DNA of 63,989 nucleotides, counting the filler, from Hausera hauseri (lineage: Eukaryota), in the NCBI GenBank assembly GCA_046269625.1. It is 11 parts of 11 records of this genome, joined end to end, with 100 filler letters (N's around TTAATTAATTAA, not from the genome) between each part and the next. Parts side by side here need not be neighbours in the genome. Positions count along the whole stretch, not along the records: positions 21,789 to 25,822 come from JBJURY010805198.1; positions 25,923 to 32,622 come from JBJURY010073993.1; 9 more parts are not named here. One strand, 5' to 3'. Of the stretch, positions 21,789-32,424 are shown one piece after another. The notes below the pieces were generated by a model that saw only the letters and a program-made list of their open reading frames with translations, was not told the origin of the DNA and did not search any database. Numbering within the stretch: the stretch's first letter is position 1; the number at the start of each line of letters is the position of its first letter. Both the position numbers and the translations under genes were made by a program.

Positions 21789-24120
21789 TCAGAACACAAT
21801 ATTTGTGCCCATGCCTACGTAGATGTTTTTTAGTTGTCGTCCTTTTGGTATTATATCCTTGTCAGCAAATTCTATAATCTGCTAGATAATCCTATCTCTT
21901 CTTTGCTCAGTTGAGATTTTAATCGCTTTATCCATTATTAGGGCGCGTTGGCGTTTTATTATTTCTTCAAGCTGACTTTTCTTCCTAACAGTAATTGCGC
22001 TTGTTTTGGTCTTTTACCTTGATAGTGTATCGGCATTTACATGTTTACTTCCTTGCTTATATTAGAATTCGATAGTATATCTAGAGATTTCTTCGATCCA
22101 TCTGTTAAGCCTGCATGTTGGATTATTTTCTCGTCCTTTCAGGGTAGTGACGGCTTTATGATCAGTAACAATTATGATTTTCTGCCAATACACAAACGTT
22201 AAAATGTCGGAGCGCTTCTTTCACTGCTAGAGTTTCTAATTCAGTAACAAAGTAATTTTTTTCGGCCTTCTTCAAGGAACGTCCTCCATAAGCAATTTGG
22301 TGTTCTAATTCTTCATCTTCTCTTTTCTGTGCTAATTTATGTCCAATACCTTCCTAACTGTCGTCTGTCTTGATTATAAAGGGTAAGTTAAAGTCTGGGT
22401 ATCGTAAAACTGGTTCGCTTGTTAATATCTTCTTCATCTCATCAAAAGCTTTTTGTTCGACGTCTGTCCATTTCCATTTAATTCCTTTTTTAAGTAGGCG
22501 GTATAGAGGTGCATTAATTTTTGAATTATCTGGAACATAGGTTGCGTAATATCCGCAAAGTCATAGCCAGTGTCTTAATTCTTTTTGGTTTTGCGGTTCC
22601 ATGCGGTTTGATATTTTATTAAATAATGGTTTGTCTGGTCTCGATCCTCCTTCTCCAACTATATGGCCAAGGTAGGATACTGCGTTTTGAGCCCATTTAC
22701 ATTTCTTTGGATTTAATTTCAATCCGGCTTGTTCCAGTCTCATTAATGTGTGTTCGATATTTTTTAAGTGTTCCTCTTCTGTCCTTGATGCTACCATTAC
22801 GTCGTCTGGGTACGCAAATGCATGATCCAGTCTCATTAGTATTTTGTTCATCATTCTTGTAAATATGTTTGGTCCGGTGGTAATACCGAACGGCATGACG
22901 TTAAATTCATAGATACCATCGTTTGTTTTGAATGCTGTCTTATAACGATTACATTTTCAATTTCCACTTGCCAATATCCGGATTGTAAATCCAGAGTGGT
23001 AAACCATTTGGCTCCTGAGAGTCGATCTAAAGCCTCCTTTACTGACGGTAATGGGAAGGAATCTTTTATCATAAGATTATTTAAGGCTCTGTAGTCAATA
23101 CAAAATCAATGTTTTGTGGTACCTTTTTTCTTAACCATGAGGATTGGTGAATACCAAGATCTACAGCTGGGCCTAATTGTATCGGCCTTAAGCATTCGTT
23201 GGACTTCCTTCGTTATTTCAGGCCTTAGTGAATGTGGTGGAGGGTACCATTTCGGCATCTTCTTATCCTCAAAATCTATTTCTTCATTTGAACCAGGCTT
23301 TTTTTAAGCGGAATGGTCAGTTTTAACGCTTTCGCTCTACCGATATCTTCTTCGTCCTTAGCGATAGTCGATTTATAACGGCATAATAATTCATAAAATC
23401 GACAATAAGACTCAGGTGAAAACTTAATTTCAACGTGAGGTAAAAATTCGGCATACTTGTAAGACTTTTCTTCACTAGTTATTTACGATACTCTATACGT
23501 GTCTCCTAAAGTAGTATAAGCATGGAGTTTAATGGGAGTCTGCGTATTATTAGCTATTCTAATTGGCACTCGACAGGAGTGTACTTTTGTTAATATATTG
23601 CTGAGTAATATATTTAGATCTAATGTATCCCTTGGTTCAAAATATACTGGTTGATCGTCATCTTGCTGTATCTGGACACAAATTATCATTTTTGTTCTCG
23701 GTGGGATGTCTTCGTCTACAGGTATCCATACCTCTTCGAATTTTCTATATTTAGCGTTTTTCACACCTTTATTCGGTCTGATTTCTATCATCGTCCCCGT
23801 TTGTAGGTCAATTGCTATATTTGTCAACCTTTTTAGTAGATCGCATCCTAGAACTATGTCATTGGTTAATTGCTCAATAACTGCACATTCGTGATGGAAA
23901 AATTGTCCAACTATTTGAACTTCTGGATTCCATTTAAACATTTGTTTTGACAATTGACCAAAAGCTCCTGTACTTCCTGGATCTTTTGTAGACGGTGGAT
24001 ATATTTGTCTTCTCAGTGTTTGAAGTATTGAATCATTTTTGATGTAAGACATCTCGGATCCTGTATCGATTAAGGCCTAAACTTCCCAATCTTCAATAAT
24101 GATTTTGGCAAAGGATCTTC
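21789..24120 (-). mobile_element. Ty3/gypsy pol of family A2: PR, dUTPase-like segment, RT, RNase H
   Basis: ALIDTGSEMSYI (about 24065), IVLGCDLL, CIDYRALN, LDLQSGYWQV, MPFG, AYPDD (YLDD in the sister copy at about 50850), RH ELETLA..TDHKA. Confidence 0.92.
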
Positions 24121-24499
24121 TTTTTATTACTGTTCCGAAACAATTTAATGTATCCTTTGAGCGTTTCTCCGCAGATATTTTATGTCCATTGATTCGGATT
24201 TTGGGGAGGATACTACATTCTCCGACAACTGTCTTAATTCTTCGTTTGGATATAACTCGTTGTTTTCTATGTGCAATTCTGCCGTTTCGTGTGTACTAAC
24301 TAATGGTTCTCGATTGTTGGTGTGTAGTTTTGTATTTTGGAAGGTTTTTAACCTTGGGTTGTTCCAAATTGTTGATATAGTTTCTATGTTCCAAGGTTCT
24401 CTCGGAGATTAAAACATCTTGAGACCATCTGTGAATTGTTGGTAACACATTTTCCATAGGATTCCATAACGTTTCGTTCCTTCATAAGGTTCTTGTACG

Positions 24500-25822
24500 T
24501 TAATTGTTCATTTATAAATTTCCGTCTGATATGAACTTATTGATCGTTTGTCGCAGTCTTCATAGACTGGAGCGGTAGGAGGCAGCATAGGCAATGGCAC
24601 TTTAATGACAGAGTACGTTTTATGTCTGTTTATTCCTGAAAGTGCTTCTCCTCCCTTAGGCTTGTCATCATCTGAGTTATTTCTATGCGTATTCGTTTTT
24701 GTAAATTTCCGCTTCCGCAAGAATATAGGCCTTCCTCTTCGTTTACGATTATAATAACCGACATGGCGTACTATGTCCAATTTCCATCTGTTTTCTTCGT
24801 ATGCCTTTAAGAATTTTTCAAAGGGCGTTATGATCACCGTCAGTATTTTACATGAAAATCCAGTCAATGTAAATATTTCGTACCCATTTATTACTGCTTG
24901 GATGACTGCTTTAATCATTTATATGAGGAAATATATTGCTAAAAATCCGGATGCAGTTTGTCCGAAAATTAAAAATCTTCCCCAAATTTTGTAGAGTATC
25001 TCATTTAGCCTGATATATTGTATCATCTACTACAGAAGCCATGGCTCGGTTTGACTGGTGTGTTCGTTGTCGCGGAAAAGCGAGGAATTGCCTAAAGGCT
25101 TCGATTTCCTTGGACCTGTATATGCCTTTCGACGAGGTGTCTTGAAATTTATCGTCCGTAATTCCTTTTGCAAGGTTTGTTCCTGTTAATTTACTTGGGG
25201 CAGAAGTGATATCTCCATTTGGCAAATTAACCCAGTCTGTTTACTGCGTTTAAACATGGGTTTTCCTAAGCTTGCCTTACAATCTTTAAGGATGGTTGCT
25301 TGGGTCGCGTTATCTAGTAACACTCTCGTCAATGGTGTAGCTAACCTAGGAGTATTCTGATAAATAACAGAGAGTTCCTGAATGCAACGTTTTTCTTCCA
25401 CGTTGATGGGTACGTCTCTCTTTTCGCATTTATAGGTTAGCAATACTTCGCCTGTAACCCGACCGAAAATTCCCTCTCTCATGGGAATTATTGGAGGAGC
25501 CAATTCTGGGTTGGCATATATAAGAGCCGATTTAGTTCTCATAATTTCAGTATCTAATCTGCAGTCATTCATTATCATTTTGTAATACAATTCAGTTATT
25601 TCGACTTGCCCTTTGTAATAGAAGTATTAGTCTCTGTTCTTCAGGTAATCTTCAATTTGGATATTCTGTGTTTCTAGTTTGTAAGTTTTCGCATTTATTT
25701 CCGTTTCTGCAACGAAAATGCCTCATAGTTGGCAGCGAACATCACTACATCACAACAAGAGATCATTTCTTTTTAAATAAATTTCAGTCCGTGTTGATCC
25801 GAGTTCAATATAGTGGATGTAG
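24500..25822 (-). pseudogene. Chuvirus-like glycoprotein C-terminal half, TM and tail, upstream of PR (family A2)
   Basis: NDCRLD..YANPE..GIFGRVTGEVLLTYKC..RCIQELSV..ATPLTRVL, GIYRSKEIEAFRQFLAFP, IWGRFLIFGQTASGFLAIYF..INGYEIFTLTGFS; homologous to 1800-2800. Confidence 0.82.
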
Positions 25823-25922
25823 NNNNNNNNNNNNNNNNNNNNNNNNNNNNNNNNNNNNNNNNNNNNTTAATTAATTAANNNNNNNNNNNNNNNNNNNNNN
25901 NNNNNNNNNNNNNNNNNNNNNN

Positions 25923-31369: not shown

Positions 31370-31743
31370 GGAAAATGAATGCCCAGTATGTGAGGCAAAT
31401 CTGAAACAAGAATACGTAATGCTAAATAATCCTGATTGCCGACACAAATACTGTAGAGACTGTTGGAGAATAATGGACGTTGGATAATCGAAAAACCACC
31501 TGTCCTGTCTGCAGAGCGGAGGCAGCCGATTTGAAATATTACTCAAACGGTAGCTATACTAGAATAGTTACAATAAAGCCCTACCACAGTTATGAACTCG
31601 AAACAAATCTCATAGCAAATCAGCCCAGTACTAGTTTCGGCCCCAGTCTAAGAAGACGTATGGAAATGTTACGACGACCCCGTTCTCGCGGCACCTCTCC
31701 TGACACAATTGGCACCTCGAAGGATGCCGTTCAGGGAGGATAA
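31370..31743 (+). pseudogene. C3HC4 RING finger accessory domain ending at the PPT
   Basis: CPVC..CRHKYCRDC..(frameshift)..CPVCR; the ORF stops inside the polypurine tract. Confidence 0.8.
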
Positions 31744-31744
31744 A
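31733..31744 (+). other. Polypurine tract
   Basis: AGGGAGGATAAA immediately before TG; the sister copy has AGGGAGGAGAAA. Confidence 0.8.
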
Positions 31745-32424
31745 TGTTATAAAGAAAACAATAGATGTAGACATTGCATCGGAGAGAAAACAATAAGTGT
31801 AGGTACTGTAAATAATTAATAATAGAATGATGTCGATTGTTTATATTATTCACGAATACATAGAAAAATTATATATTATTCAACTGGATTAATATTAATG
31901 TAAACCGGAAAATGAATCAATAAATATAAAACAAACTGGATGAAAAAAGAAAGTATCAAATATAATTCATAAGAAAACTGTTGTCACTTAAATTAATCAG
32001 AAGCTACGAAGTATAAAAGGGGAGCTGAAATCAGAAGAATCAGAACCGAAATAGAAGCGCATGCAAACTTTATCTCGCAACAGACTTGATATCGGTATTG
32101 ACGAATTGTAACATTATCGTTCTGTGAGTGATTAAAGGTATTTCAATTGTTTCATTCTTAAATTCCTTATAATTCCCACTGCCCTTAAGGTGATTTGACG
32201 TCATTAGGTTTTAAAATTATTACTTAACTTATATAGATAAGAGAGACGTTTTAAACTATCGGCACAGGACCGCATACAATTTACCCGCATAGAAACTTAA
32301 AATCGTTAAGGTACATTCTGTCTATTCCATAACGGTAGACCGAACCGCATAAGAAAATAAACTTCAAGTGTAATTATTGTTATATAGTGGGAGTTGAATA
32401 AGGGCCACCCCAATATATATAACA
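31745..32424 (+). repeat. 3' LTR of family A2 (about 680 bp)
   Basis: TGTTATA...TATAACA inverted ends, TATAAAA at about 32012, block 32180-32245 shared with 44017-44080. Confidence 0.8.

Follow-up and report, generated by a model that had tools for sequence, protein, structure and literature searches.

GAG-ENV-POL errantiviruses with a herpes simplex virus (HSV)/glycoprotein B (gB)-type ENV have been reported from Platyhelminthes, Bryozoa and Nematoda, and those with both long terminal repeats (LTRs) called are about 10-13 kb in length (Chary and Hayashi, PMC13524379). In Burro/GYPSM1, a giant planarian gypsy of more than 25 kb, env lies in frame between gag and pol and has matches to mononegavirus fusion proteins, and BCL2, BIR, MATH and ankyrin domains are located between gag and env (PMC6431247). 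The bdelloid elements Juno and Vesta carry DnaQ-superfamily nuclease or membrane open reading frames (ORFs) downstream of pol, typically spliced and usually of one ORF3 type per family, with the nuclease being of the DEDDy type and its catalytic residues intact (PMC5408684). Glycoprotein-first order (PMC13524379, PMC6431247), nuclease ORF3s (PMC5408684) and ubiquitin-related extras (PMC6431247) are thus already in print. Here we describe a Ty3/gypsy family in a stretch of Hausera hauseri DNA (63,989 nucleotides with filler, GCA_046269625.1; hereafter the window) that combines these traits in a different way.

Like the GAG-ENV-POL errantiviruses, this family has a Ty3/gypsy pol and a gB-type glycoprotein (G) before the protease (PMC13524379), and like Burro it has env before pol, what appears to be a huge polyprotein, and ubiquitination-linked extras including a RING-type motif (PMC6431247). 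Only gag, env and pol are annotated for the former elements, in which unannotated 3' cargo is possible, and the main text of PMC13524379 has 0 occurrences of the words 'RING', 'fibronectin' and 'exonuclease'; those elements also have a Gag, whereas none was seen in this window. Unlike in Burro, no MATH, BIR, BCL2, ankyrin, SUMO-like or dUTPase domain was matched in the window, which lacks the region upstream of G, and a second type I membrane protein after the integrase, a nuclease and a 3' RING frame are not described in the parts of PMC6431247 drawn on. As in Juno and Vesta a DnaQ-superfamily segment lies downstream of pol, but it is DEDDh-like, likely dead and followed by a RING, with G located upstream (PMC5408684). 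A literature search of titles and abstract starts found neither FN3 nor RING cargo in a gypsy element, nor a fibronectin type III (FN3)-type membrane protein fused after an integrase together with a splice acceptor and a slippery site; the nematode elements of Sacco et al. 2022 may have 3' ORFs.

Our reading, held with moderate confidence as a whole, is that three copies in the window (E, F and I) are dead members of one recombining Ty3/gypsy family, in which G and a 3' cargo were likely parts of the same element, longer than 10 kb, which would have worked by the mechanism proposed below. Herpesvirus gB-type fusogens need partner proteins for receptor binding. If our reading is true, an FN3 membrane protein encoded in frame with G and pol might be what guides the gB-type envelopes of retrotransposons to target cells. 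Such 3' cargo would escape surveys that annotate gag, env and pol alone, so the GAG-ENV-POL elements already published are open to immediate re-examination for it. Should G and the cargo turn out not to co-occur, the finding reduces to a gypsy subfamily in which the integrase is followed by an unusual membrane protein and a pseudonuclease-RING gene.

Three broken copies of one gypsy family

The window consists of 11 contigs with 10 artificial linkers (N44, 12 bases, N44) between them. Its segment 21789-32424, presented as one reconstructed element by a sequence-only reading of this DNA, covers two contigs, E (21789-25822, with the element on the minus strand) and F (25923-32622, plus strand). 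Given that these are separate contigs in opposite orientation, their adjacency carries no meaning. The third copy is on contig I, and a distant family is represented by contig A (1-4000, minus strand). Judged by what the window contains, the host is an animal. The pol and glycoprotein features, in window positions, are as follows.

21789-22403, minus: RNase H (RH) and start of the integrase (IN) region of E, cut by the contig end (PF17919/PF17917, E-values 4e-12 to 1e-10)
22404-23303, minus: reverse transcriptase (RT) of E (PF00078, E-values 3.5e-23 and 7.7e-7; YPDD at 22812)
23486-24295, minus: aspartyl protease (PR) of E and following region (PF13975, E-value 1.6e-4; DTG at 24067-24059)
24511-25822, minus: C-terminal half of a gB/mononegavirus-type G of E, broken and cut by the contig end (PF24664, E-value 2.5e-17)
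25823-25922, no strand: artificial linker, one of the 10, separating E from F
25923-27700, plus: RH and IN of F, the latter with zinc finger, core and GPY/F-like end (Pfam)
44017-50911, minus: copy I, with RT, RH, IN, the same cargo, polypurine tract (PPT) and part of the LTR (self-BLAST, Pfam)
1-3300, minus: contig A, a second, distant family with G, transmembrane (TM) segment, linker and PR in one open frame (901-2385), then the start of RT (Pfam)

Judged by their sequence, E, F and I are one Ty3/gypsy (Metaviridae) family. Self-BLAST aligned E 21797-22867 with I 49835-50906 at 83.3% over 1075 nt, E 21794-22403 with F 26535-25923 at 79.2% over 614 nt, and F 25923-31752 with I 50445-44581 at 86.6% over 5898 nt. 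This pairwise range of 79.2-86.6% bears out the claim of the sequence-only reading that the RH regions of all three copies form one DNA family, and the match it had noticed between RT 22540-22870 and 50580-50911 was recovered in blocks 85-87% alike. On contig E the order by Pfam is G, PR, RT, RH and start of the IN region, and in F and I, by Pfam and sequence, it is RH (preceded by RT in I), IN, cargo, PPT and LTR, in agreement with where G, PR, RT, RH, IN and RING had been placed before. PR-RT-RH-start of IN in E and RT-RH-IN in I represent the Ty3/gypsy pol order. The gypsy assignment, already made in the earlier reading, gains support from gypsy-type matches to PF17919, PF17917, PF17921 and PF00665 (the last three in F with E-values of 2.7e-29, 2e-13 and 2e-12) and from the GPY of the integrase end, found at 48808 in copy I, and no Pfam match to Peptidase_A17 (BEL/Pao) occurred among the 67 pieces scanned. 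The RT motif of copy I is YLDD at 50851, and the protease of E also matched PF00077 (E-value 0.0024) when read through a stop. Overlapping E with F gave a total of 9,923 nt, of which 4,045 nt extend from the IN end to the LTR start, so that earlier estimates of a reconstruct of about 10 kb with about 4 kb of accessory sequence between IN and PPT in two copies hold.

All three copies are dead. Among the indels distinguishing F from I upstream of the LTR, 16 of 19 change the frame, and in E the G, linker, PR and RT regions are interrupted by stops and frame changes. The ancestral frames are open, and pol has been under purifying selection, with a ratio of nonsynonymous to synonymous divergence (dN/dS) between F and I of 0.10 (dS 0.685, dN 0.071; Nei-Gojobori counts on one pair of copies, as throughout). 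Wrong frames gave dN/dS down to 0.27-0.46 in short blocks, which weakens any such argument from short segments, and therefore only long stretches were counted as evidence of selection. The F-I dN was 0.05-0.12 in every region, which reads as decay after insertion.

The G of E matched PF24664 (Monjiviricetes fusion glycoprotein) at profile positions 286-425, with further pieces at 451-505 and 564-601 (E-values 0.03-0.04). In contig A, a single 495-amino-acid frame matched both PF24664 (E-value 4e-26) and PF00077 (E-value 8e-6), and the two contigs are 27-46% identical in amino acids, with 33-41% for their G proteins. A gB/mononegavirus-type glycoprotein is located upstream of PR in both E and A, and the presence of the same order in a distant family indicates that G before PR is old in the lineage. 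By eye, the cysteines in the contig A G ectodomain are arranged as in the C1a sequences of Schmidtea given in the PMC13524379 supplement. The sequence-only reading had proposed a virus-like gypsy with two membrane proteins, which stands at the level of the family, with the qualification that G before pol had already been described (PMC13524379, PMC6431247). It counts against our reading that the Gag of the E/F/I family was not recognised, and its 5' LTR not seen, in the window. Contig A 3300-4000 gave no Pfam match in three frames. That Gag went unseen is explained by both G-bearing contigs, E and A, ending at or near the start of G.

A predicted second membrane protein after the integrase

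Downstream of IN, copies F and I appear to encode a second type I membrane protein, whose features in F are as follows.

27710-27790, plus: signal-peptide-like segment in frame with IN and with a small-x-small end (hydropathy 2.14 in F)
27791-28971, plus: cysteine-rich ectodomain of the second type I membrane protein, in a frame without stops common to F and I
28633-28899, plus: predicted FN3-type beta-sandwich beside the membrane (AlphaFold2, Foldseek, VIA)
28972-29133, plus: TM helix (hydropathy 3.13 in F and 2.93 in I), followed by a short tail that has an NPxxPY/YxxI-like motif

The frame 47801-49417 of copy I is open for 539 codons and leads from IN into the ectodomain. In eleven 150-nt windows covering 27550-29199, stops common to F and I numbered 0 in the coding frame and 57 in the other two. 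Cleavage would follow the small-x-small motif of the signal-like segment. We take the tail motif to carry its usual meaning; a stop follows the tail in F, and copy I reads on.

AlphaFold2 folded the 89 residues before the stalk into a seven-stranded sandwich (pLDDT 68); seven strands and an LxPxTxY motif are the marks of an FN3 domain. In a Foldseek search against the PDB the top rows were mostly FN3 domains, with a best E-value of 2.5e-3, a TM-score of about 0.6 and none reaching 0.001. VIA-align gave Z 8.0 with a root-mean-square deviation of 2.7 over 80 residues to a monobody and Z 8.4 to a sandwich that is not FN3, within a middling range of Z 7-8.4, and the Pfam fn3 matches (E-values 0.03-0.045) were below cut-off. 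Combined, these results predict an FN3 fold for the membrane-proximal part of the protein. Relatives of the ectodomain were found among 0 of 1493 protein candidates, viral contigs and Atlas gave no usable match, and a PDB sequence search with F 28543-29133 returned 0 matches. The N-terminal part of the ectodomain had no relative, fold or profile match in these searches, and its single-sequence fold had a pLDDT of 30.

Two observations weigh against this picture. The signal-like segment passes the 1.6 hydropathy cut-off in F only and falls below it in I, and the ectodomain has a dN/dS of 0.97, with no sign of selection. However, ectodomain dS between F and I (28051-29060) is 0.086 vs 0.685 in pol (Fisher p 9e-23), indicating that this segment was shared recently between the F and I lineages, and because of this recent sharing selection on the ectodomain cannot be read from the F-I pair. 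In several contigs of one public run (X1), the match to F begins only at about 28993 or 29126 and the sequence before it is unlike, and some carry other letters near 29246-29303 (window 28990-29300). Elements with other ectodomains may share the TM-tail piece.

We propose that a long polyprotein, (Gag?)-G-TM-PR-RT-RH-IN-signal-FN3 ectodomain-TM, would thread the endoplasmic reticulum membrane. PR-RT-RH-IN would then face the cytosol, held between two anchors, and G and the FN3 protein would both be luminal, with the enzymes being freed by the element's protease together with the host signal peptidase. In such an arrangement G would be the fusogen, and the FN3 protein would sit on the same particle or vesicle as an attachment or targeting partner. 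A role for the FN3 protein in entry or targeting is put forward tentatively, by analogy. The analogue, functional only, is Drosophila Sas, an FN3 single-pass protein with a short tyrosine-motif tail that binds the Gag-derived dArc1 capsid and directs vesicles to recipient cells (bioRxiv 10.1101/2022.09.06.506798). Unlike the element protein, Sas is a host gene; no homology is claimed, and the tail described here is without a true NPxY motif.

The same recent exchange would also fit a protein acting as a decoy or blocker on the producing cell, through receptor interference or as an immune decoy, and swapped under host conflict: the sharing of just the ectodomain segment resembles a sweep, and cytokine and adhesion receptors, which are typical FN3 bearers, fill the structure matches. 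By contrast, the position of the FN3 protein in frame with G and pol would tie it to particle production, and the ectodomain searches did not find a closer host homologue. We hold the decoy with low confidence, only slightly below that in a role in entry or targeting.

Nuclease-like and RING frames of the 3' cargo

Beyond the membrane protein, the cargo comprises the following features up to the end of the element.

29200-29259, plus: candidate 3' splice acceptor with pyrimidine tract, AG ending at 29234 and in-frame ATG at 29257
29850-30330, plus: DEDDh/DnaQ-like segment, right end approximate, straddling a frame change (Pfam, NCBIfam, PDB)
30120-30126, plus: slippery-type heptamer A AAA AAT (46236 in I), at which both copies change frame
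31380-31512, plus: C3HC4 RING close to where the cargo frame ends, interrupted in F by a frameshift (PF00097)
31733-31744, plus: PPT, with 11 of 12 purines in F and 12 of 12 in I (44600-44589)
31745-32424, plus: probable 3' LTR of 680 bp, TG...CA, with a 7-bp terminal inverted repeat; the right end is probable only

The sequence-only reading had taken the cargo for real coding sequence with a RING, and both points hold. The nuclease-like stretch 29470-30125 has a dN/dS of 0.22 (216 codons, p 2e-10), and the frame beyond the heptamer has 0.27 over 515 codons (p 3e-15) and is under purifying selection. PF00097 matched the N-terminal half of the RING in F (E-value 2.6e-5) and the C-terminal half in I (E-value 1.1e-4), each half being above cut-off; the eight zinc ligands can be followed in F across one frameshift (CPVC, CRHKYC..CW, CPVC), dN/dS of the RING is 0.22, and its frame runs up to the PPT. 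Measuring dN/dS on the accessory ORFs, as proposed earlier, gave a divided answer: the nuclease-like and RING parts show purifying selection, and the value for the ectodomain is uninformative. If the cargo were host-gene debris, captured and amplified passively with the element, the near-neutral ratio of the ectodomain would be expected. Such a history is made very improbable by the low ratios over the long nuclease-like and RING stretches (p <1e-6), by the 0 vs 57 shared stops of the ectodomain and its in-frame fusion to IN, and by the lack of a recognisable host gene.

The T-rich tract of the candidate acceptor ranks first among 180 YAG sites in F (tied on pyrimidines, first on T) and among 197 in I, and its YAG is 22 nt upstream of the in-frame ATG. 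Use of this acceptor at 29234 for a subgenomic RNA is rather probable. A donor-like GTAAGT occurs 4 nt past it in both copies (29239, plus; 47151, minus) and could represent a micro-exon or an alternative splice route. Speaking against splicing, the tail and the nuclease frame have no common stop between them (F stops, I does not), and thus one longer polyprotein or read-through is also possible.

Exonuclease-like was the earlier label for the next segment, and weak DnaQ-type matches support it, consisting of Pfam RNase_T (E-value 0.0025), seven DnaQ-type NCBIfam rows (6e-4 to 0.05) and a 68-residue query for which all three PDB matches were SDN1, ISG20 and PolC (0.2-1.4). None of these reaches a curated cut-off, and a similar score for SUMO1 over a stretch overlapping this one also counts against the assignment; we judged the SUMO1 identity likely to be chance, given that only part of SUMO is covered and that several DnaQ-type profiles match the overlapped stretch. 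The label probably fails in its catalytic sense, with the single alignable catalytic Asp missing: after the 'VGH' motif, both copies have Met opposite the Asp of SDN1 'GHSLNRD' (Exo II). The alignments ended short of the Exo I D-x-E and the Exo III H/D. By ISG20 numbering the Exo I residues are presumably replaced as well, and the DEDDh-like segment is likely catalytically dead.

In both copies the frame change falls at the Exo II Asp position, at a heptamer that has 1 other shared in-frame counterpart among 1346 positions. A stimulatory hairpin downstream of it was not found (-6.9 and -9.8 vs -9.8 and -10.0 kcal/mol for shuffled sequence), and the tract around the heptamer has a low dS (0.09). 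Both points tell against a programmed event, since without downstream structure and with low local dS the frame change may be an inherited lesion. The X1 indel table for F has no difference at the shared frame change among 12 of 24 rows, a weak indication. Programmed frameshifting at the heptamer is therefore a possibility about which we are somewhat doubtful. As proposed, a spliced subgenomic RNA would make the 3' cargo and a -1 frameshift would add the RING, with the pseudonuclease binding nucleic acid or a host factor and the coupled RING acting as a ubiquitin ligase that would remove a restriction or silencing factor. Action of this predicted ligase against host defence, in the sense of the host-modulating cargo suggested by the sequence-only reading, is conceivable, and we hold it with low confidence.

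TG follows the purine tract directly in both F and I. The LTR call is probable only, because it is seen once, without a partner LTR or target-site duplication, the 5' end being outside the window; the chance of the terminal 7-mer in this region is 0.11. The likeness of F and I collapses within the LTR except for 72 bp at 87.5% (32173-32243 and 44088-44017), and this kept block is possibly a regulatory element. The flank after the LTR (32425-32622) has by far the largest summed X1 contig depth and holds a short Cys/His-rich open frame with no Pfam match; it is probably an unrelated abundant repeat.

Probable linkage of G to the cargo, and other elements of the window

As the sequence-only reading had recognised, G and the accessory block are joined by homology and not physically, with E and F on separate contigs. 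In the first 210 of the 601 columns of the three-way overlap, differences are 13.3% for E-I, 12.9% for F-I and 17.1% for E-F. E-I identity is 86-91% in the 600 nt nearest RT, and E-I dS of 0.51-0.69 with dN of 0.05-0.07 in RT/RH resembles pol of F-I. Copy I, itself a carrier of the cargo, thus resembles E in the part that faces G; this favours I-type elements with G and says less on the 3' end of E itself. We consider it fairly likely that G and the cargo co-occurred in one element.

Several results pull the other way. G and the cargo stand together on no sequence. The other 391 columns differ by 22.0% for E-I, 22.8% for E-F and 17.4% for F-I, making E the outlier towards IN, where E-I identity is 77-81% beyond the 600 nt and E-I dS is 1.5-3.2; the best breakpoint was without significance (18 of 200 permutations). 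Segments have also been swapped in this family, as the ectodomain dS demonstrates, so E could end in other cargo, and linking by pol homology is weaker in a mosaic family than it appears. These facts would suit sister subfamilies, of which the E type had other or no 3' cargo and the F/I type used the FN3 protein without G, for example in cell-to-cell passage without a fusogen. The divergence of E from F and I towards IN, the mosaic dS as module exchange, and the X1 contigs joining F from about 28993 or 29126, whose TM-tail may follow other ectodomains, are all in line with it. By contrast, copy I stands equally close to E and F in RH, its high likeness to E extends through RT, and distant family A shares the G-PR order, old in the lineage. 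We find separate subfamilies unlikely, and prefer co-occurrence of G and cargo.

In run X1, 16,983 contigs matched E and 15,891 matched F, and every one of the 30 bins of each was represented. Most are under 95% alike, which points to numerous diverged copies of the two parts within this data set; the run may come from the source sample and adds no independent support. Among the X1 pieces listed, the longest have about 300-450 nt, too short to connect G with the cargo, which further limits the case for co-occurrence, as does the failure of protein, viral-contig and metagenome searches to find a close public relative. Among longer proteins, the G-PR frame was found in 0 of 5496 candidates and an integrase in 19 of 525, at 26-39% identity and with PF24664 on none of those listed. 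Viral contigs contained 3 weak integrase loci, with 0 and 0 from two further searches, and metagenomes contained 8 RH loci at 31-60%; none of these 11 related loci or 19 proteins matches G or the cargo.

Taken at its fullest, the proposal would be a two-protein entry machine, with a class III fusogen and an FN3 attachment protein from one polyprotein, and a spliced, frameshift-controlled pseudonuclease-RING counter-defence. The element would then have reached retroviral-level complexity independently, with its targeting protein swapped between lineages. That all of this holds together is improbable in our estimate.

Other elements share the window. Another gypsy family has two copies, 77% alike, at 9536-11772 and 33537-35773, and is unrelated to the G-bearing family beyond 30% RT identity. 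Polinton/Maverick-like pieces are located at 42422-43916, 51052-52580 and 17466-21688, two copies being 82% alike, with weak Pfam matches to adenovirus protease and PolB (E-values 0.03-0.04) and what we take to be a capsid. A 1.8-kb imperfect palindrome (40518-42306), 71% self-complementary, adjoins Polinton-like genes. By eye, a piggyBac-like transposase in decay and a fragment of an EH-domain gene presumably lie at 15357-16945 and 55182-55451.

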